DNA from: a virus | Taxonomy: Duplodnaviria > Heunggongvirae > Uroviricota > Caudoviricetes | IMG/VR virus record: IMGVR_UViG_2585427708_000005 | Direction: 5' to 3' (one strand) | Length of the DNA stretch: 64,000 nt | Shown here: positions 3,149 through 59,500 of the stretch, piece by piece | Layout: each line of letters opens with the position of its first letter | Position numbering within the stretch: the first letter of the stretch is position 1 | The notes under the pieces: model-generated | Told to the model about the DNA's origin: nothing | Seen by the model: the letters and a program-made list of their open reading frames with translations, nothing else | The model's database searches: none | Made by a program: the position numbers and the translations under genes

Positions 3149-3601
3149 TCAGATACGTGCGGATGTGGCATTACCGTAATGACGGTGCTGACGGGCCACC
3201 TTATTGAAAAGTTGACGCGCCATTACCCAAGGCTGGTGCTCCCGGCGTTCCTTTTCGTCCTGCGTCATATAGAGTTCGTTCTGGAGTTTTTCATCAAACC
3301 GGCGCGGAGCGCGGCTACGGCGAAAGAATTCAGGATTCAGAGAGTGGATCTGAAATCTACGTGGGCGTGTACTGTCATCAATCAAAACAGACGAATACTT
3401 AGACACAGCGATAGCCTTTAAGCGCAGATAAACATCGCGCTTATCGACATCCAGATGCGGGTATTCCTTTTCAAGAATTGCTGCGAGTTCTTTCGCTGAT
3501 AGAAGAGATTTAGTGCGGATCATGTAATCCGCAATCTCGTACGATGTTATTCGTGAGTGATTTATTTCCATGAAGTGGCGTCCCTGCCAGTTAAGTAACA
3601 T
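3149..3601 (-). CDS. lpa: Late promoter activator (Lpa-like, gene 10)
   Basis: 150-aa ORF between the pdc/doc module and pacA, preceded by an operator-like site; assignment by position and size only. Confidence 0.5.
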   Translation of the reverse strand: MLLNWQGRHFMEINHSRITSYEIADYMIRTKSLLSAKELAAILEKEYPHLDVDKRDVYLRLKAIAVSKYSSVLIDDSTRPRRFQIHSLNPEFFRRSRAPRRFDEKLQNELYMTQDEKERREHQPWVMARQLFNKVARQHRHYGNATSARI

Positions 3602-3671
3602 CCTGTCACCTACTGATTAGCCCATGTCAACTAATCAACGTGGAATATAATACCCTCGATTAAAGAAATAG

Positions 3672-3688
3672 CAATACATTAGAGCAAT
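3672..3688 (-). promoter_or_regulatory. C1 operator-like site (14/17)
   Basis: caatacattagagcaat just upstream of the lpa start. Confidence 0.45.
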
Positions 3689-3689
3689 T

Positions 3690-4733
3690 TTATCTAACGC
3701 TCGACGAGTGACTTGTGATAGCGCCGACTCCAAGCGCGTAATCAAAGAACAATCGTTGATGCATCGCCAGCCTGCCGTGCGTCTTCTCCCAATTATCGCG
3801 GTCACGCTCAATATCACGCTGGCATGACTGGCACAGAGGAATTGCGTAAATGTCATGCGCGCATAATCGACTATGACGAACGATATAAGGCGTAATGCGA
3901 GCGCCAGCTCCCGCAGCTCCACATCCACAGCACGGACGGGAAGCAACAAAGTCCATGTACTCGGGTAATTTTAGCGATTGCAGTTTTGGTATTTTGAAAT
4001 GCGCCATGCCAGGGTCGGAGTCAACATCCACAGGGCATACTTTTGCACGCATCGGCGCGGCGCGTTCTTCCATCATCTGAACATATGCTGTAGCACGATC
4101 GTCGTACGGGCGAATATCCGCCTCTTTCAAAGGTCCGCTATCCTGCGGAGCAGCCTTCATCTTATTTATTGATATGCGGCAAACTTCTTCCGGCATCAGG
4201 TGCATCATGTTGCGCATGAAAGCCCACCAGCACAGTTCCTGAATACTTAAATCATGGCCATCTGAAAGCCCCATTTCCTGACGGGCGACATCCAGTATCC
4301 AGTTAACGCGATTATTATGCAGCGTTTCTTTCAGCTCATTAAAACCACGCATCCGGTAATGGTTATCGTGATGCCAGCACAACAACACCGCGCTATTGTC
4401 TCGTTCTGCGTGGACAATATGGTTGTCACACCAGCTACGATCTGCGGCCTGGCATTGCCCCTCTTTCCTGCGCAACCACGCCACCAGCGCGTCAATTCCA
4501 CCAATACGGCGAAACAGTTCATCGCTGTTAAAAAACGGCTGCAACGCCTCATTTGTTGCCATAGTTTGCTCGGAAACAACGAGGCCGTCGTCCATGTGCT
4601 CGATTAACTCACGCGGCACCGGCTCCATAATAAATTTACGGCCAGCCTCCACCAGCTTTCTGACTTCCTGATCCACTTTGAATGTGGCGACGCCAAGCTC
4701 TTTTTGTACAAAGGGAGTAATTACGGCTTTCAC
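3690..4733 (-). CDS. Hypothetical protein with HNH-like Cys/His motifs (DUF968-like; P1 pdcB position)
   Basis: 347-aa ORF; CDNHIVH...LLCWHHDNH and C-terminal CxxC motifs; downstream of doc. Confidence 0.6.
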
Positions 4734-47251: not shown

Positions 47252-47761
47252 ATGGGGCACAATAACACTAACGGAAACCGTAAATTTATTAAGGGCCGCT
47301 ATACTGCCAACGCGGCCAAAGGCGAACGACTGGTATCTTCTGAATTCCAGCTCACTGTTGCAGGCCATGAAGATATCAGCGTACTGGTTCGCACGTCGCA
47401 AATTCCTGAAATGACCCGCGAGGATGTGGAGGACTATGGTCCGAATGGTGTGAAGTTCAACCAGCACGGTCCAATTCGAAACTCTGGGGAAATCCAGGTC
47501 CAGTGCGTGGAGACTATCGAAGGCGATATTCTTCAGTTCATTAAAGATCGCATTGCGGCGAAGGACTATGTTGATATCACGATGGCTGCTACCCCTGAAT
47601 CCAAATCTTCCGGGGTTAACGCTGTGACAAAAGCTGCTACAACAATTGAAATGTTGGACTGCAAAATCTACAGTGATGCAATCGACTTTAGTACCGAAGA
47701 TGTGACTGCCGCTGTGCGCCCGTCACTTCGTATCGTTTACAACTGGATTGAGTGGGATTAA
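47252..47761 (+). CDS. Putative tail structural protein
   Basis: 169 aa; followed by a strong terminator. Confidence 0.4.
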   Translation: MGHNNTNGNRKFIKGRYTANAAKGERLVSSEFQLTVAGHEDISVLVRTSQIPEMTREDVEDYGPNGVKFNQHGPIRNSGEIQVQCVETIEGDILQFIKDRIAAKDYVDITMAATPESKSSGVNAVTKAATTIEMLDCKIYSDAIDFSTEDVTAAVRPSLRIVYNWIEWD

Positions 47762-47782
47762 GAGTCATCCCTTGTATTTTAA

Positions 47783-47805
47783 AGCTCCTGCGGGAGCTTT
47801 TTTTG
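47783..47805 (+). terminator. Rho-independent terminator
   Basis: agctcctgcgggagct hairpin followed by a T7 run. Confidence 0.8.
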
Positions 47806-47845
47806 TGCTTAAATTATGCTGGTATAGCGAAATTTTGAGCATATT

Positions 47846-48142
47846 ATGGAAATTGATTTTTCATACTCTCCTGAAACGATAGAACGAAGATTCGAAATAA
47901 TTGGATGCAAAACTATTTCAGAGGAGCATTATTGGATTCTCTATGATGCCAATACATGGTTATGTGCCTTAGCAGAATGTCGGTCATCGTTATGTGCAGG
48001 GGAGGGAGGACTTCGACATAAGGTGCTGGCTACACTTGAAGTGAACACGTTACGATATTGGTGTGTCGAAATACTTAGGAATAACAAAGAATTACATTTA
48101 TTATTGCTGAATAAATGTGCACCTCTGCGCAGAAAAGCATAA
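47846..48142 (+). CDS. Hypothetical Cys-rich small protein in AT-rich islet
   Basis: 98-aa ORF; local AT-rich composition. Confidence 0.4.
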   Translation: MEIDFSYSPETIERRFEIIGCKTISEEHYWILYDANTWLCALAECRSSLCAGEGGLRHKVLATLEVNTLRYWCVEILRNNKELHLLLLNKCAPLRRKA

Positions 48143-48269
48143 GAAAACCCAACAGCCATACTGGAATTATCAGAAGAATATGTGCGGAAAGTTATAGCTA
48201 GCTATTGAAAAGCTAAAGTAGATCGGTTAGATTTGCCTTACTCATCTACCATGTGTAGAAAGAGCGATC

Positions 48270-48309
48270 GAACCCGATACATAGCAATATGTGTCGGGTT
48301 CAGCTTTTT
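48270..48309 (+). terminator. Rho-independent terminator between convergent genes
   Basis: gaacccgatacat...atgtgtcgggttc hairpin followed by a T6 run. Confidence 0.6.
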
Positions 48310-48788
48310 TATGTCCCAAGCGCTCTTTTTCTGCTTTGTTTGAGTGTTCTGATTTTACTGTTATAGGTTACAACATAGGCTGTTTTAAGAAGCCAATAGT
48401 CTCTACGTGCGGATAGCACAACAACGTAGTTTTCACACTCGTTCCAGATTACCCATTCTTCAGTTGGTCCTCGTCTTTCAGACCAACATGATATATCGGA
48501 ATGGTTATAATTCCTTATCATATGCGCGATCCAGCGGATCCGCTTACACCGTTCAAGATCAGGTATTCGTTCTTCTTCTATTTTTCCCTCTGATACTAAA
48601 TGCCAAAATCCGAACTCTTTCCCATCATATTCCGGTGAATAACGTAACCGAACAGGGAGACCCTTAAACGTTATATTAGAGATTAAAATGTCTTCTCTGA
48701 CAACATAATATACATCGTCTATATACTCTTGCCAACTTCCATTGAAGTACAATAAATCTGGCATTTGAAGCATCAGCGAGCCTCCCAC
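48309..48788 (-). CDS. Hypothetical protein (partner of the DUF3800-like gene)
   Basis: 159 aa; overlaps the upstream gene by 16 nt; AT-rich. Confidence 0.5.
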   Translation of the reverse strand: MGGSLMLQMPDLLYFNGSWQEYIDDVYYVVREDILISNITFKGLPVRLRYSPEYDGKEFGFWHLVSEGKIEEERIPDLERCKRIRWIAHMIRNYNHSDISCWSERRGPTEEWVIWNECENYVVVLSARRDYWLLKTAYVVTYNSKIRTLKQSRKRALGT

Positions 48789-49477
48789 ACGAAAATATTA
48801 AATTTACTTTCTGTTGGAAGAGTGCTTTTTAGTAAATCCCTGTTTGTATGTGATTTTATCCTGTTTATGACTTGGATTTTTCCCGCGTTGCTATTCATTC
48901 CTCGATGAACGTAGCCTAACGCACCAATGAAAAGATCCGTTAGCTGCAATTGTTGCACTTCATGAGATCGTATATGTTGAATTCTGTTTATCGACTCATG
49001 ATTGTAATCATAGCGATCATTGTGAAGAACTCCTCTTAATTTCTCAATTTTTTCAATGCCTAAAGTATCTTTTATATCTAGGTAGATATTGTATGTGTTG
49101 TTACTTTCTATTATGTTTTTTAAGACATAAAAAAACATCTTATAATAGAAAGTATTATGATCTTGATGGAATCGAGCATGGTCCAGTTGCTCTTTATCAG
49201 GAACAACAACACCTCTAAAGCGCAATGCTGGGTTGCTGAAGAAGTAATCTACGACATCTAAGTAAAATTCAACCTTGGACGCAGATACTTTAGTCCACTT
49301 GATTTCGAAATCAGGTTTTAGATTGTGTTTTAATTTTAATTCCTTGATGTCTCTAGCAATTTTTTTTGTGATAGTGCCAGGGCACCAAAGCGCACCCAAT
49401 ACCATGACTTTATTATGATCATTTAGTAGGTGACAGGATTCATCGCAGAATACATTAAATGTTCTTCGGTTCAACAT
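48773..49477 (-). CDS. DUF3800-like protein (N-terminal F-C-D-E-S-C-H motif, C-terminal QLQLTD motif)
   Basis: 234 aa; VFCDESCH near the N-terminus and HEVQQLQLTDLFIGAL near the C-terminus resemble the DUF3800 signature as recalled; AT-rich. Confidence 0.45.
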   Translation of the reverse strand: MLNRRTFNVFCDESCHLLNDHNKVMVLGALWCPGTITKKIARDIKELKLKHNLKPDFEIKWTKVSASKVEFYLDVVDYFFSNPALRFRGVVVPDKEQLDHARFHQDHNTFYYKMFFYVLKNIIESNNTYNIYLDIKDTLGIEKIEKLRGVLHNDRYDYNHESINRIQHIRSHEVQQLQLTDLFIGALGYVHRGMNSNAGKIQVINRIKSHTNRDLLKSTLPTESKFNIFVWEAR

Positions 49478-49645
49478 GTTAACTCCACTTATTGTTAGGT
49501 AGAATTGTCCGTTAGTTGTTTATTAATTGCAATAATGGGACGTCCAGTTTTGGCAACAGTGCCCTCTTACCAGGACGCCTATGAGTTTGCCTCATGGCAA
49601 ACTAGAGGCGTTGAAAGTATGCATGGTTATAATTAGAACAATTCA

Positions 49646-50491
49646 TTACCCTCTGAATCCCGCCGGTATACCCCATTGTTCGTTATCTTTATTTTTGGCT
49701 AAAACCGCATTAAGAGCTTCGTTTACCGTCATGCAATGCGGTAGGTTATCGAAGTTTGATATCCCGCCAATATCAGGCGAACGCTTGTTCTTCAGGTAAG
49801 CATATTTCCGCGCAGCCGCCTCTACTTTCTGCTTGAACTCATGTTTTTGAGTGCGTTTTTTGGATAACCGCAGATTGTCAGCCTTTGCTTTTGCCTCAGC
49901 GATCCATGAAGTCAATTTTTTGAGTCTGGTCGTTCCGGCACCGCCGGAAACTGATCTTTTTGTTTTTTTAACTTGTGACTTCTTATTCTTTATTGCCACG
50001 TCATCCTGACAGGGGGAGGGGGTATCATTTTGATATGGGGGTGTGGTTAAAAAATCAAATAAAGCCAATGTCTTAGCGAGAACAGCTTTAACCTTGGTTG
50101 CGGCTGAAGAGATCTTTAATTTGCTTTCAGTCAGCGCGTTTTTAGCTTGTTGTGCGAAGGCCAAAAAGGATGGTGTAAACCGGTACAGGTTAGCGCGACG
50201 TTCACGGTGATCGCCGATAACAATCTCTACAGACAGAATTCCTTTGTTTACAGCTTCACGGAATGCACGAACGACGGTTGATTGGCTATAACCAGTTTCT
50301 GCCGCGATCAGGCGGTGAGGCTTGTGAATGAAGTATTCACTGGTTGTTGCCGCGAGATTTGCACATTGCGACAGGATATGCCCGGCGCTACGGGATAGAC
50401 CGGAGTGTGTTACAAAGCAGGCCAATTCATAGCCAGAAAAAGTAAAATCGCTCATCGTTATACAGCTCAGGAAAGTGACTTTAGCCAGCAT
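49646..50491 (-). CDS. repL: Lytic replicon initiator RepL
   Basis: 281 aa; HTH region then basic C-terminus; directly downstream of kilA. Confidence 0.8.
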   Translation of the reverse strand: MLAKVTFLSCITMSDFTFSGYELACFVTHSGLSRSAGHILSQCANLAATTSEYFIHKPHRLIAAETGYSQSTVVRAFREAVNKGILSVEIVIGDHRERRANLYRFTPSFLAFAQQAKNALTESKLKISSAATKVKAVLAKTLALFDFLTTPPYQNDTPSPCQDDVAIKNKKSQVKKTKRSVSGGAGTTRLKKLTSWIAEAKAKADNLRLSKKRTQKHEFKQKVEAAARKYAYLKNKRSPDIGGISNFDNLPHCMTVNEALNAVLAKNKDNEQWGIPAGFRG

Positions 50492-50520
50492 TACAATGCT
50501 GGTGGTTCTTACTACGTCTG

Positions 50521-51321
50521 TTAGCGCGTTGCCGCGACAGGTACCAGCACACCAGCATCAAGCAATCGCTTCATCAGCCACTGCTGACCTTTGCCGGTTA
50601 TACGAGTCGTGAAAGAAATCCTGCTTCCATTGCTTGTATCGATCACGGTTTCTTTAAGGGTGAAATACCCACGGGATATGTATTCTTGTTTGGGGACGTT
50701 CCTGCGTTCACCGGTTGCGATCAGAATTCCGTTATCACGCAACCAGGTGAAGAGATAGTTTTGGCCCAGGCCGAGCACTTTGGCATAGTTGCCGATTAGA
50801 ACCCCGCTGGCGGTAGCAACGCGTTCGGCGAATTCGACTTTAGGTGCATCCATCAGCATTTTTTGCTCCAGCCGTTGCTTTTGCTCTGCCAGGTCAGCAG
50901 CCAAACGGAGAGCTTCTGGGAGGCTCTTCGGAATAGCAGGTTGTAATCTTCCGGCTCGATAGTCGATAAATGTCTGGTTTACCTTCAGCCGAAACGCGGG
51001 AGAAATCCAGCCTGCGTACTCCACTGCGAGCAATTCATGGGCAAAAGTGCCGCCGCCACGGCCTTCGAACGAAACTATGCAATTCTGCATAGTTTCTTTT
51101 TCAAGCTCTTCGATGAGCTGTTTGGCTGACAGCGTTCTTAGCCATTGAGCTGGCGCTTTATGGGCACCGAGTCCGCTCGCTCTGTGTAGAGCATTAAGGT
51201 TGTAACGGCCAGCGCGGTCGGTCGTAATTTCAACACCACAAATAACAGGCAGAGTGGTTGAAGGATCGACATTTTGATGAAGGTTTGATATATTCATATC
51301 CGCATTGAATGTTTGTTGCAT
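50521..51321 (-). CDS. kilA: KilA (KilA-N domain with Bro/antirepressor-type C-terminal domain)
   Basis: 266 aa; C-terminal half paralogous to the C-terminus of the adjacent antirepressor; operator upstream. Confidence 0.8.
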   Translation of the reverse strand: MQQTFNADMNISNLHQNVDPSTTLPVICGVEITTDRAGRYNLNALHRASGLGAHKAPAQWLRTLSAKQLIEELEKETMQNCIVSFEGRGGGTFAHELLAVEYAGWISPAFRLKVNQTFIDYRAGRLQPAIPKSLPEALRLAADLAEQKQRLEQKMLMDAPKVEFAERVATASGVLIGNYAKVLGLGQNYLFTWLRDNGILIATGERRNVPKQEYISRGYFTLKETVIDTSNGSRISFTTRITGKGQQWLMKRLLDAGVLVPVAATR

Positions 51322-51390
51322 TTTTTCTCCAAATTTGCATCAACCTTCAATCACCAGCTCGAAATGGTGATTCTTTGCACTTAGAAAACG

Positions 51391-51407
51391 AAATTTATTA
51401 GAGCAAA
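51391..51407 (-). promoter_or_regulatory. C1 operator-like site (16/17) upstream of kilA-repL
   Basis: aaatttattagagcaaa. Confidence 0.65.
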
Positions 51408-51485
51408 TTTTTCTAACTCGATCCAGATCGGGTTGGACGATCTGCTCAGAAACCTGCCAGTTTGCTGGCAGGTTTTTTTCTTTTG

Positions 51486-52529
51486 TTAACCTATTGCTAC
51501 TGGTTTTAACAAACCAGCATCAAGTAGCTTGCGAGTTAACCACTGCTGGCCTTTACCCGTTAATTGGGGCGTCAGCCGTATCTGGTAGCCATTTTCATCA
51601 TCCAGCACCACTTCTTTCACCGTGAAATACCCGGCGTTGATGTACTGTTGGCGCGGTACGTTTTTGCGCGCTCCAAAAGCCATGAGAATGCCATTCTGGC
51701 GCAACCATGAGAAAAGGGCGTTTTGCTTAAGTCCAACGACCTTTGCAAAGTTCCCGATCAGGATTCCATTAGCCACTGATACCCGGTCGGCAAAATCGAC
51801 TTTAGGGGCAGCGGCCACCAGCTGTTGTTCCAGCTGCATTTTCTGTTCTGCTAACTCGGCAGCCAGGCGTAGAGCTTCTGGTAATGTTTGGGGGATCGAT
51901 GGGGCAGGGGAGTTTGCCTGCTGCAATTCTTCCAGTTTGTCGATCAGCGAACGGCGGACCGCTTTTGACTCGCGCGCGGCGACTCGCAAGGCTTGTTTGT
52001 AGGTCATGGTGATGACCTCAAAAGAGCGCCCAGCCCTTGTGCCATGGGATTTTGCACTTTTTGTGTAAAATTCACCTTCAAGTTCATCGAGTATTTTTTC
52101 GATGAATTTATTGTTTCTAACCTCTGGTTCTCCACATAACTTGCGTGCCTCATTGACCATCTTCAACAATGTTTGGCTGTCGATTGTGTCTCCGGTGTTG
52201 GGGATGACATTCACGGCTGGTGTTGGCGTAGCTGACGTAACAGGTGCTGGTTTCTCAACATTCAAATTTTTACCGGTCACTCTATGTGCCTCCTTTCTCA
52301 TTTCTGCTGCCACCGTTGCGTAACGTAGACGTCCTTGTTCAATCAAATAATCCCTGATCTCGGCTATCAGTAGCCTGTTGATCACTGCCTTATCTGTTCG
52401 GGTATAAAAACGCCTGGTTATCATGAAATAGTTGGCAATTGCGCCGGGGATCTCCCGCGTCGGCATACAGGCAGTATGCAGGGCGATTGCTTCGGCTATG
52501 TCATTACGGGTGACGAGAGGTTTTTTCAT
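51486..52529 (-). CDS. ant: Antirepressor (Ant-like)
   Basis: 347 aa; C-terminal domain shared with KilA; preceded by a coupled small ORF. Confidence 0.7.
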   Translation of the reverse strand: MKKPLVTRNDIAEAIALHTACMPTREIPGAIANYFMITRRFYTRTDKAVINRLLIAEIRDYLIEQGRLRYATVAAEMRKEAHRVTGKNLNVEKPAPVTSATPTPAVNVIPNTGDTIDSQTLLKMVNEARKLCGEPEVRNNKFIEKILDELEGEFYTKSAKSHGTRAGRSFEVITMTYKQALRVAARESKAVRRSLIDKLEELQQANSPAPSIPQTLPEALRLAAELAEQKMQLEQQLVAAAPKVDFADRVSVANGILIGNFAKVVGLKQNALFSWLRQNGILMAFGARKNVPRQQYINAGYFTVKEVVLDDENGYQIRLTPQLTGKGQQWLTRKLLDAGLLKPVAIG

Positions 52530-52747
52530 AAAACCCCCTGAACGTCGGCAGAGAAGGGGAGGTTCCAGTAACTAAGTGAATTGCGCGAGTTAGTTGAAAA
52601 ACGGGCAGTAAAAATGCAGGGGCCATCAGGCAATTGAGAGCGTGCTTCGTCTTCAGTTGCTGCGATAACGAAGTGATAGTGGTGTTTTTTACAGGAATAG
52701 AAACGCCAGATGAATTCTGGGCGTGTGCAAGGATTGGCATTAACCAT
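52526..52747 (-). CDS. icd: Icd-like small protein, translationally coupled to ant
   Basis: 73-aa ORF whose stop overlaps the ant start codon (ATGA overlap). Confidence 0.5.
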   Translation of the reverse strand: MVNANPCTRPEFIWRFYSCKKHHYHFVIAATEDEARSQLPDGPCIFTARFSTNSRNSLSYWNLPFSADVQGVL

Positions 52748-53060
52748 AGTTACGGCCTCACTAACAGGTTTAACAACCTGCTACCCGCTGTCAAACAGGT
52801 GGCAGGACGTGACAGGGTTGACAGACTGGCGTTAGTGAAACCAGCAGGCCGAAGCCTCCCCATCACGCCCCACCATAATTCGGGCGTAACGCGGTTTACG
52901 GACACAAAAATACCGCAATATCGGAAATCTGCGGTTGTCCGCACTAACATTCAGGCTGTCAAACCCGGTCGCAGAATTTGCTACGACGGCGGAACTATAA
53001 GCCTGAACGATTAAAAGGTCAATATGATGCGAAAAGATAGCATTCGTGACTTAAAAATAC

Positions 53061-53077
53061 AAATTTATTAGAGCATT
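53061..53077 (-). promoter_or_regulatory. C1 operator-like site (16/17) at the immI promoter region
   Basis: aaatttattagagcatt upstream of the leftward icd-ant leader. Confidence 0.6.
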
Positions 53078-53146
53078 GTTTGTTTAATAAATGCACAATT
53101 GGATCTAATAACCTCTTTTTTTTAAAGGCGAAAATATGTACCCTAA

Positions 53147-53821
53147 ATGAGTTATAAGGCAGGTGAGGTTATAATGAGAAAACTATTACTACCGTTATTA
53201 TTTATGGCTGGGACTGTTAATGCAGCATCAAGCGTAAAGGAGATTTGTACCGATTATACGAAATACCTTGGGCACGTTTACGGCTTTGCTGTCAGTGAAG
53301 ACGAATCCATGCGCAAGAAGTTACTGTCAGATATGAAGCGCCTTAAACTTTCTGAAGCGATGGTGCAGCAGGAACTGTATAAAGTCTCAACCAACGCAAA
53401 TGCTAAATACCAATATTCTCGCCTATTAAACCCCGATGCAAATGAGATCAATCGAAGCACTTTCGATTATATGGTAAAGGCATGCGAAACCGCTCCTGAT
53501 TTTGCTATCCCTAGCTGGGGTGTGCTGGTGGCGAGCAATGCCGTTAATAAAGAAGATGTTGGAAGAAATGGCATTGACTCAATCAGAAATGCCCCAGGAA
53601 TGCGCCATCAAAACGTGCAGGGTACGCTTGAAGAGCGGGCCAGGGGGCCGGGTACAAACTCCCCAATGGGAAACCTCTCACCAGAGGAATTGCAAGAGTA
53701 TAACCAACGGATGGAGCAGTATGAGAAAGCGGCACGCGAACAAATGGAACAACAAAAGAACGGCTCACTTAATACCTTCCAGCAAGGTTTAAAAGCGCTT
53801 AATTTACCCTATGAATGGTAA
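53147..53821 (+). CDS. Secreted hypothetical protein (signal peptide) carrying a motif shared with Sit
   Basis: 224 aa; signal peptide MRKLLLPLLFMAGTVNA; GMRHQNVQGTLEERARGPGT matches a Sit internal motif. Confidence 0.55.
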   Translation: MSYKAGEVIMRKLLLPLLFMAGTVNAASSVKEICTDYTKYLGHVYGFAVSEDESMRKKLLSDMKRLKLSEAMVQQELYKVSTNANAKYQYSRLLNPDANEINRSTFDYMVKACETAPDFAIPSWGVLVASNAVNKEDVGRNGIDSIRNAPGMRHQNVQGTLEERARGPGTNSPMGNLSPEELQEYNQRMEQYEKAAREQMEQQKNGSLNTFQQGLKALNLPYEW

Positions 53822-53882
53822 ATATATTATGGATAACCAATTAAAATATTGATAATCGTTAATATCCAAAGGAGATAAATTA

Positions 53883-54359
53883 ATGCGCATCAAACGATTT
53901 TTTCTAATTCTTGCTTTGCTTACTCCATTTTCATCAATGGCAAATGTAAGCAAATGGTCAACCGGCGAGACTCATGGTGTTCGTTCTTATGCTGTTTCCA
54001 GCAAAGATAATTATACGCTTACATTTGAGTGCGATGTTGGATTTAATAATACGGATCCCAATCAAGTAGGAACACGACTACTCACTCTCATGAAAACAGA
54101 ACCTGGCGGTGAGTCATTTGATGCTAAAAAAGAACAAATAACGCTGAAAGTTGGTGATGATGAATATCCTATCAGTTCTATCGGTTCCTCTGTTGGTGAT
54201 AGTTACTGGTATGGTTTTTGGTCAGATACCCCTGATATGGAAGTTAAAACATTCGATGCATACGTAGACGGAAAAAAAATCGCAACATTTACGCTACGTA
54301 AGGCCGCAGAGCTTTTCAACGCGGCACCTGAAGATGGCTGCCTGAAGCGCGCAAAATGA
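53883..54359 (+). CDS. Secreted hypothetical protein (signal peptide)
   Basis: 158 aa; N-terminal signal MRIKRFFLILALLTPFSSMA; strong RBS aaggagat. Confidence 0.55.
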   Translation: MRIKRFFLILALLTPFSSMANVSKWSTGETHGVRSYAVSSKDNYTLTFECDVGFNNTDPNQVGTRLLTLMKTEPGGESFDAKKEQITLKVGDDEYPISSIGSSVGDSYWYGFWSDTPDMEVKTFDAYVDGKKIATFTLRKAAELFNAAPEDGCLKRAK

Positions 54360-54393
54360 CCTGTCACAAATGACTACTCGTAGAATCGGTTAA

Positions 54394-54984
<591 letters not shown>

Positions 54985-56583: not shown

Positions 56584-59500
56584 ATGGAAAGAAAAAACGC
56601 CAACATTGACGATGTTATAAGGACAGTTGAAACCGCCAGCGCAAAAGAGCTGGAAGAGCTTGCAGGTATCCGGGAAGCTGTTGAAGATTTGAAAGGGGGA
56701 CGCGTTGCAACTGTTGATCCTGTCTCTCGCAGTGTGTCGGCATTAAATCGCACAATCGAAAATTCCCGGCCAGACTTTGTGGCCAATGCGCCATCAGTGG
56801 ACCCTATTGTTGAGGCAATGAAACGGCTTAATTTAGGGGACGTTCCTCGTGTAGTTCAGGAGGATGTTGCTCTACAGGAACCGCAGGCCAAATCAACTAC
56901 GCGAAAGGGTAAAAAACGAGGCAGGAAGGCTATAACAGAAGATGTAAAGGCGCAACGGACCGAAGCAGCCGAACACGCCCGCGAAATGTTCGGTCAAAAA
57001 GGCGGTACGCAAAAAAGCCAAAACCAACGCGATGCGCGTGGTCGTTTTATTGGAAAGTCAGGGAGTAAGGCCGCAGCGGAAGATGCCCGTGCTGAACGCG
57101 CTGAAAAGACCAGGCGCAAAGAGGATGATGAGCGTCTAAATGCTGAATCAGGTTTATTAAAAAAACTGTCAAAAGTAGCTGAAGGTATAGGTAACCCTTC
57201 AGAGACTCGTGCCGTCGATGCTTTAGGTTATGCCGTTGCTGGCCCATTGTGGGCAGCGGGAAAAGAGCTTGGCGGGATATCAAAAGAAGTTGGCGGATCG
57301 CTTAATGGTGCCAGAAAGTCTATTGCCGATGTGATTCGTGGCAATGACGATAACAGCCGTAAAAAAGGTTTTTTTAGGCGTAAATCGCAAAGTAGTGCCG
57401 ATGTCGTTCAGGTTAACACCCAAAAACGGACGGTTCAGGAACTTCAGGATCAGACCAGCGAAATTAAAGAGGGCAATGACAAGATTCTCAGCGCCCTTGA
57501 TCAGATAGCCAAAAACACCGGGAAAAAGAAGGGCGGCTTGCTGTCCAAATTATTTAGCCTGTTAGGGAAGGGGGCCGGTGGTATTGCCTCCCTTATTTTT
57601 GGCCGTGGGGCACTAAAGAAAGTTGGCTCGATGGCACTCGGCGCTTTAGGTATTAAGGGGGTAGGGAAACTAGGGATTAAGGCGGTCGCAAAAGGCGCTT
57701 TACGTGCAATTCCGCTAGTCGGCACGGTGGCTGGAGGTATCTATGATGCGGTAACCGGTTGGAATGATATAGAAGCGCAACGCCGAGCGTTTGGGCTTAA
57801 ATCAGGACAAGATCCATCATTCCAGCAAAAAGCCGCTTATACGTTAGCTAATGTTCTTGATATGGGGGGACTGGTATCTGGTATTAGCAGCGCCATTGGT
57901 GAGGTTCTCAAATCACTTGGATTTGAGGATATCGGCAATATGTTGCAATCATTTTCGACGGAAAGTATTGCCCAGGCCATTGATAGCGGGGTTACCAACT
58001 TAGAAACATATATTTCTAATCTTGGCGACACCATTTCTACCAAGTTCGATGATTATACAGCAAAGATTGGTGATGCTATTTCTGCATGGTTCAGTGACAC
58101 CACAAAGAATCTGAACGAAAAATTAGACGCCATCAAAAACTTCTTTACTGTCGATAACCTGAAACAGGTTTTCAGTGATGCAATTGATAGTGCAATTGAT
58201 TTCATTAAGAATCCTGGGAAATACATTAAAGAGGCTGGCAGTAATCTATGGAGTGCCGCAAAAGAGCTTTCAGGTGAGGTTGCAGATGCCGCTGTTCAGA
58301 GCACCCCTGTGGCCTGGGTTGCATCAAAGCTAGTCAACAAAGCGGATGCGAAAGAGGTTACACCTGAATTAAAAACACCAGCTAAAGAAAGTCAGGAGGA
58401 CAATGCTCCTAAGACTGAATATACCCCTAAAAAGGCTAATATTGTCACTCGTGTTGTAAATGCATCCCTAGATACGGCGAAAGATAGCAATAAAACAGTT
58501 AAAGAAACTGCCAATCAGATTATCAATGCAAATGCCGTAGAAACGGGCAATCGCGCGTTGCAGAAAATTGATAATGCTATTGGTCAAAATAGCTCATCAT
58601 CATCGTCGCTTAATACTACTGGCACCAGGAATGACATTCAGAAAGCTGCGGATACCTACAACAATGGCAACTTAGATGTAAAAGTCGGAAGCCTTGGCGC
58701 TGAAGGTAAGGCAAATCTCGATAAGTTGGCTCCGTATTTTGCTGAACTAGAGAATAAATATGGCCTTCCTGAAGGTACTCTTTACGCGATCGCTGCAACT
58801 GAATCTGGTGGTGATCCTAACGCAAAATCTACGCTTACAAGATCACCAAATGGAAAGCTAAGTGGTGGCGCTCTCGGAATGTTCCAGTTTACGAGCGTTG
58901 CTCGTGAGGAAACTGGATTATCCCGGGAAGATTCTTTTAATCCGGAAAAATCGGCAGAAGCTGCGGCTCTTCTCATGAGCAAGTATCTGAAGCAAGCCAA
59001 TGGAGACTTAAACGAGGCCATCACTGCATATAACGCTGGGTTTGGCACTATCAATAAGTGGAAAAAAGGCACAGGTGACTTATCGAAAGAAAACCGTGAG
59101 TACGCGATCAAGGTCAATACTCATCGTGCTCGCTATTTGGGTGGTGAAATCTATACACCTGGAGCAGGAGCACAGGGTGGGGCGCAATATGGAGTGAGGG
59201 GACCACTGCCTGATAACGCCGTTATCGATCAGTCTACTGGCCTGGCGTTTACCCCTGGTGATAGCCCGTTTGAGAAAGGCGGTCTGGTAGACAAAATCGG
59301 CAATGCTGTTGGCGTTAACGATCTGGTCAACAAATTCATGAATGGCCGGGGGATGCGTCGGGAAGTCGTTCAGGGAACCCTCGAAGAACGTGCACGAGGA
59401 AGGGGAACCGCAACGGCAGCTGGCAATGTGTATGTTGATACACCTATGCCAGTTGAAGAGGCACGTCCGGTAGCAAACAACTCAAGTTACTTTGACCAAC

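Follow-up and report, generated by a model that had tools for sequence, protein, structure and literature searches.

Closest described systems

The closest described counterpart of the genes considered here is the sim locus of phage P1. Sim is reported to deny superinfecting P1 DNA access to the cytoplasm (PMC8546580, with reference to Devlin 1982 and to Kliem & Dreiseikelmann 1989); the sim region is one of eight variable regions of low guanine-cytosine (GC) content in P1-like phage-plasmids (PMC9603915), and simABC were non-essential in a CRISPR interference (CRISPRi) screen (PMC10695390). We analysed an open reading frame (ORF), named ORF2 (positions 53883–54359, + strand), in a 64,000-nucleotide (nt) stretch of viral DNA, IMG/VR record IMGVR_UViG_2585427708_000005 (Caudoviricetes), which is called the window below and which, as judged from homology, is a P1-like phage-plasmid (Punavirus). 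ORF2 encodes a predicted exported protein of 158 amino acids (aa) that is assigned to the YfjT family (Pfam PF27224) on the basis of its reading frame, its match to phrog_3429 and family homology. It is preceded by ORF1 (53174–53821, + strand), the gene of a second predicted exported protein.

The pair shares with P1 Sim the locus, the strand and the neighbouring elements (Oc4/PsimA to the left and LPsit to the right), as well as predicted signal peptides, low GC and dispensability, and SimA shares the first 51 residues of ORF1. SimB and SimC have no detectable homology to ORF2. Relatives of ORF2 itself are found in Escherichia coli K-12, namely YkfB (CP4-6) and YfjT (CP4-57), which resemble it in size (145–166 aa), signal peptide, N-terminal Trp/Gly and Cys pair, lie in mobile elements and are likewise preceded by a gene for another envelope protein. 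They differ in their partners, a ypjK membrane peptide and a YafY/YfjS lipoprotein as against the ORF1/SimA-like protein of the window, and their identity to ORF2 is only about 25–30%.

Exclusion genes beside the injection or receptor-binding genes that they antagonise are a familiar pattern (Cor, Llp, Ltp), and T4 Sp and Imm, T5 Llp and Cor are small envelope-located exclusion proteins encoded in such a position. Ltp of Streptococcus phage TP-J34, a small exported phage-encoded protein, targets the tape-measure protein (PMC3952083), which parallels the target Sit proposed below for ORF2. All of these are lipoproteins or membrane proteins with unrelated folds, whereas ORF2 is predicted to be soluble, with a site of the signal-peptidase-I type and no lipobox, and its likeness to them would be functional only. 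The lambdoid morons of the Hendrix/Juhala concept offer a further comparison: ORF1–ORF2 is likewise an autonomous insert of lower GC between conserved blocks and varies among relatives, and the cassette of Cronobacter phage JK004 also has a terminator before it and a promoter after it. The cassette of the window differs in that the promoter/terminator scan found no + strand terminator downstream of ORF2, and a hairpin appears to insulate the translation of the next gene.

Position of the cassette at the sim locus

Escherichia phage vB_EcoM-Ro157c2YLVW matches the region at 96% identity, and P1 matches its flanks only. In blastn alignments, positions 52501–53313 and 54366–54600 of the window aligned to P1 at 98% identity and nothing aligned between them, so that the cassette segment without homology to P1 extends from 53314 to 54365 (+ strand; breakpoints 53313/53314 and 54365/54366). 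P1 has the end of simA there, together with simB, simC and about 160 nt. The comparison with the P1 annotation, proposed as a check in the initial annotation of this DNA, placed ORF1–ORF2 exactly in the simA–simB–simC slot, the P1 sim (superimmunity/exclusion) locus, with the operator Oc4 and c4 on the left and the late promoter LPsit on the right.

The left flank holds ant, icd and the C4 antisense RNA of immI (52795–52880, − strand; Rfam RF01695, 68.8 bits), followed by the C1 repressor operator Oc4 (Op51; AAATTTATTAGAGCATT, 53061–53077, + strand), which has the same sequence and position as the operator annotated in P1 and lies 6 nt upstream of the predicted −35 of PsimA. ORF2 ends 8 nt before LPsit (54368–54386, + strand; −22 box AAATGACTA, −10 TAGAAT at 54381–54386), which was taken from the P1 annotation through the 98% identical alignment and is conserved in JK004. 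The genes pmgC, tub, pmgB and sit follow. These flanks, C4 RNA and Oc4 on one side and LPsit-pmgC-tub-pmgB-sit on the other, agree with the earlier statement that the gene lies between immI and the tail operon. The promoter/terminator scan around the cassette gave no more matches than shuffled sequence, and no promoter is claimed on its basis.

ORF2 and the YfjT family

ORF2 begins 8 nt downstream of a Shine-Dalgarno sequence, AGGAG (53870–53874, + strand, read from the sequence). Signal peptides were called throughout by a crude heuristic based on n-, h- and c-regions and Kyte-Doolittle hydropathy, which predicted for ORF2 a Sec signal peptide, MRIKRFFLILALLTPFSSMA (53883–53942, + strand), with cleavage before NVSKW. 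The N-terminus is composed of the basic MRIKR, the hydrophobic FFLILALLTPFSS and SMA, with small residues at −3/−1 of the site, as in signal-peptidase-I substrates, and its best 10-residue Kyte-Doolittle mean was 2.48 versus 0.9–1.3 for the cytoplasmic neighbours PmgC and Tub. The same layout was common to 30 of 30 sampled family members, and the mature N-terminus NVSKW is conserved among homologues. ORF1 likewise has a ribosome-binding site (GAGG) and a predicted signal peptide, and the earlier description of two consecutive exported proteins, with 53883–54359 encoding the second, was thus borne out.

The AT-rich character of the stretch, also noted earlier, was found again in the GC content of ORF2 (0.41; 0.30 at third codon positions), compared with 0.473 for the whole window and 0.47–0.49 for pmgC, tub, pmgB and sit; sliding GC falls to 0.34 at 53000–53300 and 53750–54050, at both ends of the cassette. 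The ratio of non-synonymous to synonymous substitution rates (dN/dS) among relatives was 0.06–0.21 in comparisons with informative synonymous sites, which indicates purifying selection, and at least 1000 contigs encode the identical protein, in each case under the label 'hypothetical protein'. Conservation and dN/dS exclude a chance reading frame, and therefore ORF2 is regarded as a real, conserved gene for a small protein with predicted periplasmic export.

In the PHROGs search ORF2 matched phrog_3429, a family without assigned function, with E 1.3e-80. The large protein search returned 16 clusters of close homologues, nearly all on contigs of about 90 kb, and each of the 16 carried PF27224 (YfjT) as a precomputed domain. 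An exhaustive profile search of 1.8 billion representatives yielded only 29 clusters matching the ORF2 family, most of them of 130–166 aa, the exceptions being a few fragments and three larger multidomain proteins; one cluster was E. coli YkfB. When the P1-like and YkfB groups were compared by hhalign, the probability was 99.3% (E 4.8e-20), and tblastn of ORF2 against the YkfB/YfjT family gave 30.6% identity (E 4e-6). By these homology searches ORF2 belongs to the PF27224 (YkfB-YfjT) family. The Pfam-A search with ORF2 gave no match, the release used being older than PF27224, and neither did the NCBIfam search.

The protein is already catalogued (PF27224, phrog_3429), and membership in the YfjT family gives a name, not a mechanism. 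The literature search on PF27224 returned nothing, and that on ykfB/yfjT turned up only gene lists and a study of FliA promoters, one of which lies within yafY and transcribes K-12 ykfB (PMC4183435).

The sampled full-length members are single-domain proteins of about 150 aa that begin with a predicted signal peptide; they share a Cys pair as well as a Trp and a Gly, both invariant, close to the start of the mature protein. In the 30-sequence alignment the only residues conserved across the family were W25 and G32, both invariant, and C50, W109, F112 and F136, each at 90% or more. Because none of the conserved residues looks catalytic, the alignment points to a non-enzymatic binding module rather than an enzyme.

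The AlphaFold model based on this alignment (predicted local distance difference test, pLDDT, 89; predicted template-modelling score, pTM, 0.81) has a beta-sandwich-like core and two helices; pLDDT was below 50 for residues 1–20 only, the signal peptide being disordered in the model. A first model from 11 close sequences had been weaker (pLDDT 71.6), and its best match in the PDB, MotY, was not significant. With the pLDDT-89 model, Foldseek found no PDB match at E ≤ 0.001 (best E 0.1), and since none of Ivy, PliC/MliC and PliG was among the top 50 PDB matches, a periplasmic inhibitor of lysozyme or lytic transglycosylase was rejected. A hidden Markov model profile search of PDB sequences with the ORF2 family was empty, and the BFVD structure search matched only uncharacterised phage proteins of the size of ORF2. 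A spanin was rejected as well, as the cleavage region, FSSMA before N, lacks a lipobox Cys and the lysis-proficient P1 does without the ORF1–ORF2 pair. The FliA promoter of ykfB and the non-significant near-match to the N-terminal domain of the flagellar protein MotY (template-modelling score TMq 0.39–0.48), which is the only near-match in the PDB, may be a coincidence.

ORF1 and its Sit-like peptide

ORF1 matched phrog_3933 (E 5.8e-136, PHROGs search) and encodes a 215-aa 'full-length SimA' protein with the predicted signal peptide MRKLLLPLLFMAGTVNA, followed by ASS. The true start is probably ATG 53174, which has the GAGG ribosome-binding site, is the start used in homologues (MRK/MKK) and in the RefSeq annotation and puts the signal peptide at the very N-terminus, rather than ATG 53147, which was called by the ORF finder (224 aa) and has no ribosome-binding site. 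P1 SimA (52 aa) is 92% identical to ORF1 residues 1–51; therefore, P1 simA is read as the truncated N-terminal stump of an ORF1-type gene (window 53147–53313; P1 locus L001, 2748–2906). As judged from the alignment, simB–simC of P1 replace the remainder of ORF1 plus ORF2, and the P1-type simB–simC cassette looks like the derived state. The variability of the sim locus has been published before; the exact allelic relation of the cassette to simABC and the reading of P1 simA as an ORF1 remnant are new here.

Many plasmids in PLSDB match ORF1 over only about the first 48 residues. Homology of ORF1 to the YafY lipoprotein was rejected. A sub-threshold Pfam match to PF14566 (PTPlike_phytase; E 1.4e-5, 25.7 bits with a cut-off of 27) lies at 53276–53527 (aa 35–118 in the 224-aa numbering); PF14566 is also precomputed for close ORF1 homologues, and the catalytic motif C(X)5R is absent from ORF1.

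A further new observation is a Sit-like motif in ORF1, GMRHQNVQGTLEERARGPGTNSPMGNL (residues 151–177; 53597–53677, + strand), found by blastp of ORF1 against Sit. It matches GMRREVVQGTLEERARGRGTATAAGNV (residues 923–949; 59350–59430, + strand) in the C-terminal part of the resident Sit tape-measure/transglycosylase with E 7e-9, and the segment also matches the Sit family phrog_2533 at positions 927–972. The two motifs are identical at 18 of 27 residues, with the same codon used at only 3 of these 18, and no similarity between the ORF1 motif and sit was found at the DNA level, by which a recent gene conversion was rejected. Because the amino acids are shared without the codons, the similarity is taken to be old and kept by selection on the peptide. 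The core [AR]PGMR.Q is retained in all ORF1 homologues, while the tails beyond it vary. The peptide could be a periplasmic decoy or a dominant-negative inhibitor of injection. A second copy of the motif is present in Sit near aa 991–1017.

Alleles and distribution of the cassette

PmgC was found in 692 PLSDB plasmid records at any identity and in about 506 at 90% identity or more, the latter being close P1 relatives. SimC occurred in 141 records, full-length ORF1 in 84 and a YfjT-family gene in 203, of which 82 were at 95% identity or more to ORF2 and 110 below 60%; a family member is thus carried by only about 200 of about 690 PmgC-bearing plasmids. Among 50,697 phage records, 6 had a YfjT-family match, and an ORF2 homologue was absent from P1 and P7 in the phage record search.

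At the sim locus YfjT-family genes recur in at least four divergent classes, with 100%, 38%, 37% and 28% identity to ORF2, which points to diversification at a fixed position. At locus L003 the allele encodes a protein with a SimA domain, a hydrophobic protein of 116 aa, a YfjT homologue that shares 38% identity with ORF2 and an SH3 protein with a hydrophobic segment. That of L004 has the same 116-aa protein, which by inspection resembles a three-helix membrane protein, a 37% identical YfjT homologue and DUF4760. In L005 an ORF1 that is cut short is combined with a YfjT homologue at 28% identity and an SH3 protein. In P7 (L047 3960–5024) the outer-membrane lipoprotein upf50.5 and a DUF5384 protein, for which a signal peptide is annotated, are encoded just upstream of LPsit, and P1 has SimA, SimB and SimC, all three with signal peptides by the heuristic. 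Every allele examined at the slot is thus predicted to encode exported or membrane (envelope) proteins. P7 upf50.5 is mislabelled 'DNA methyltransferase' in RefSeq. In L005 (1894–2385), ORF1 is 99% identical to that of the window and is cut at about residue 170, just past the Sit-like motif, before the 28% identical YfjT homologue and the SH3 protein; therefore, recombination breakpoints fall inside ORF1.

All sampled contexts of the YfjT family are mobile elements: P1-like phage-plasmids, jumbo-phage-like arrays, i.e., long runs of small same-strand ORFs, and modules of the CP4-6 island type. The order in the CP4-6-type module is ypjK, YafY/YfjS lipoprotein, YkfB/YfjT, and such a module was seen on the JM109 F' plasmid as well as on a conjugative plasmid, in which it adjoins a Lit exclusion gene. 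YkfB always follows ypjK (a small membrane peptide) and YafY/YfjS (L006, E. coli JM109 F' plasmid with the CP4-6 region, 3299–4459; L038, 3282–4453). The link between the P1 sim locus and the K-12 y-genes ykfB and yfjT is likewise new here.

In 30 of 30 IMG/VR loci the ORF1–ORF2 pair is intact and directly upstream of pmgC-tub-pmgB-sit, and the order holds even where Sit is only 46–49% identical. Cronobacter phage JK004 (L039 3280–4600) and L034 lack a block of about 5.4 kb from bplB to ORF1 (window 47759–53146), the equivalent interval of P1 holding pmgF, rlfAB, repL, kilA, ant, icd and c4. In both, the neighbours of the pair are bplB and pmgC rather than immI, and it is embedded in the tail module on the same strand; the order is bplB, an intrinsic terminator, a C1-operator-like site ATTAGAGCAAT, a conserved TATTAT element, ORF1–ORF2 and the conserved LPsit. 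The ATTAGAGCAAT site, related to Oc4, is kept upstream of ORF1 in JK004 and in L032–L035. Since JK004 and L034 keep the pair beside pmgC and have immI elsewhere, the gene orders indicate that ORF1–ORF2 is linked to the sit operon rather than to immI, although it forms a unit insulated from the operon. The earlier placing of the genes just outside the immunity region therefore holds for the window but not for JK004 and L034, where they lie in the tail module.

The hairpin upstream of pmgC

A conserved 11-bp hairpin, identified by folding energy and covariation, stands between the ORF2 stop and the pmgC ATG (54377–54411, + strand). Its left arm holds the −10 of LPsit and its right arm overlaps the pmgC Shine-Dalgarno sequence GAGG (54409–54412). 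The minimum free energy is −24.7 kcal/mol (z = −5.6 versus shuffles), and nine distinct sequences all keep the stem 100% paired, a single compensatory change among them, from G-C to A-U, representing one evolutionary event. Transcripts started at LPsit would miss the left arm and leave pmgC translatable, whereas read-through from ORF2 would fold the hairpin and hide the pmgC ribosome-binding site. Genes e and soc of T4 are known to be arranged in this way. Because a hairpin that hides this site makes sense only for upstream transcripts, ORF1–ORF2 would be transcribed while the late and tail genes must stay off; the predicted structure thus implies transcription outside the late phase, which fits an accessory, non-late role. 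This coupling of LPsit to the pmgC ribosome-binding site is described here for the first time.

Proposed function and alternatives

We put at roughly 0.45 the probability that ORF2 acts as a binding protein in the periplasm and belongs to an alternative cassette of the sim locus by which superinfecting P1-like phages are kept from entering. ORF2 would be exported by Sec to the periplasm, where its mature domain of about 138 aa would hold a disulfide, expected between C50 and C153. With ORF1 it forms a two-gene accessory cassette that is allelic to the sim genes of P1. Acting by itself or jointly with ORF1, ORF2 would interfere between phage adsorption and the arrival of the DNA in the cytoplasm, for example by acting on the ejected Sit tape-measure/transglycosylase or on a host envelope factor used by Sit. 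The proposal draws on the shared sim slot, the envelope proteins in every allele, the recurrence of the YfjT family there and its confinement to mobile elements. It draws as well on the lack of a catalytic signature, the dispensability for virions, the hairpin that hides the ribosome-binding site and the selected Sit-like peptide in ORF1. The identity and location of ORF2 are solid; from the sequence evidence we infer the exclusion function, the periplasmic binding and the timing of expression.

Several points weigh against entry exclusion. The P1 sim phenotype was seen mainly from multicopy clones. ORF2 gave blastp E values of 0.1 or worse against SimB and SimC, which belong to other PHROGs (14329 and 14355 versus 3429), and hhalign gave a probability of 0.4–0.5% with the signal peptides alone aligned; a SimB or SimC homologue was rejected on these grounds. 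The PADLOC-DB defence models matched none of ORF1, ORF2, SimB and SimC at E up to 0.1. The C1 operator adjoins the ORF1–ORF2 promoter and is kept even in JK004-type phages, which makes expression in lysogens uncertain and could mean repression there, with the role shifted to the early lytic phase. A role connected with the tail would also agree with the stable linkage to the tail operon that divergent relatives show, and in the only experimental test of the family that we found, a ykfB knock-out in K-12 left motility unaffected (PMC4183435). The initial annotation had suggested that the two proteins could be superinfection-exclusion or host-modifying morons rather than virion parts. The second half of this suggestion stands, as the genes are moron-like, lie at the sim locus upstream of LPsit and are missing from P1, which makes complete virions, so that they are accessory and not required virion parts; for exclusion, ORF2 contributes neither SimB/SimC homology nor a PADLOC match.

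The alternative that survives best, although we consider it unlikely, is a moron for lysogenic conversion or fitness that acts on the envelope to the lysogen's benefit and not in phage exclusion, through envelope stress signalling, motility or flagella, adhesion, or colicin or serum resistance. The low GC, the separate ribosome-binding site and the presence or absence among relatives would fit such a gene, as would the FliA promoter of ykfB inside yafY (PMC4183435), the weak, non-significant likeness of the ORF2 model to the N-terminal domain of MotY and one structural neighbour in BFVD labelled 'putative adhesin'. The knock-out of ykfB gave no motility defect, however, and the MotY match is below significance; moreover, the sim locus is the sole place in P1 with a documented exclusion function, and the family members of lytic jumbo phages are a better fit to phage-phage conflict or to roles at a stage of infection.

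Those same jumbo-phage members also speak for the next alternative, likewise judged improbable, in which ORF2 is a periplasmic helper of the early lytic phase that is derepressed on C1 inactivation and acts in the phage's own lytic cycle rather than in the lysogen, by protecting from lysis-from-without or secondary adsorption or by modulating peptidoglycan or Sit activity. The spacing of 6 nt between Oc4 and the predicted PsimA −35 agrees with it, as does the retention of ATTAGAGCAAT upstream of ORF1 in JK004 and L034, after the post-bplB terminator and despite immI being elsewhere, although an operator upstream of the core promoter and not over it does not assure repression. T4 Imm and Sp are early exclusion genes, and an early helper would overlap strongly with entry exclusion, timing being the main difference.

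A bolder form of the exclusion proposal, which we regard as something of a long shot, would make ORF1 and ORF2 a two-part device of a new type, in which ORF1 serves as a Sit-peptide decoy or dominant-negative partner and ORF2 captures Sit or its host factor; ykfB, yfjT and the jumbo-phage relatives would then form a widespread family of periplasmic anti-entry proteins of mobile elements. A virion or tail-assembly component of the pmgC-tub-pmgB-sit module is very improbable: the gene order is conserved down to about 47% Sit identity and the pair lies on the same strand inside the tail module of JK004 and L034, but tails are assembled in the cytoplasm whereas every homologue has a predicted cleavable Sec signal peptide, virions are formed by P1 and about 140 P1-type plasmids, which have simBC, and by P7, which has unrelated genes, ORF2 is upstream of LPsit in a unit preceded by a terminator in JK004, and no structural protein was matched in the PDB or BFVD searches.

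As it stands, ORF2 is a well-placed hypothetical protein, useful for annotation and not surprising. If entry exclusion is its function, the P1 sim locus would be a hot spot that swaps unrelated periplasmic anti-entry cassettes, the type found in the window being present on about 80 sequenced plasmids and more than 1000 contigs, and a positive exclusion result would give the first functional handle on YfjT and YkfB, the products of two K-12 genes that have no assigned function. P1 is a standard tool for transduction and delivery, and its phage-plasmid relatives spread resistance genes; cassettes that block P1 entry would shape which strains can be transduced.

Variation of sit beside the cassette

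Among those of the elements L007–L036 whose ORF1–ORF2 cassettes are 98–100% identical, Sit was 1100, 1110 or 1130 aa long at 85–100% identity; examples are sit at L007 8702–12094, L012 4987–8289 and L035 8677–11923. L035 has two ORFs, of 752 and 334 aa, in place of one sit gene, possibly because of a frameshift or of a mistake in the assembly. Comparison of these loci suggests recombination between the ORF1–ORF2 cassette and sit.

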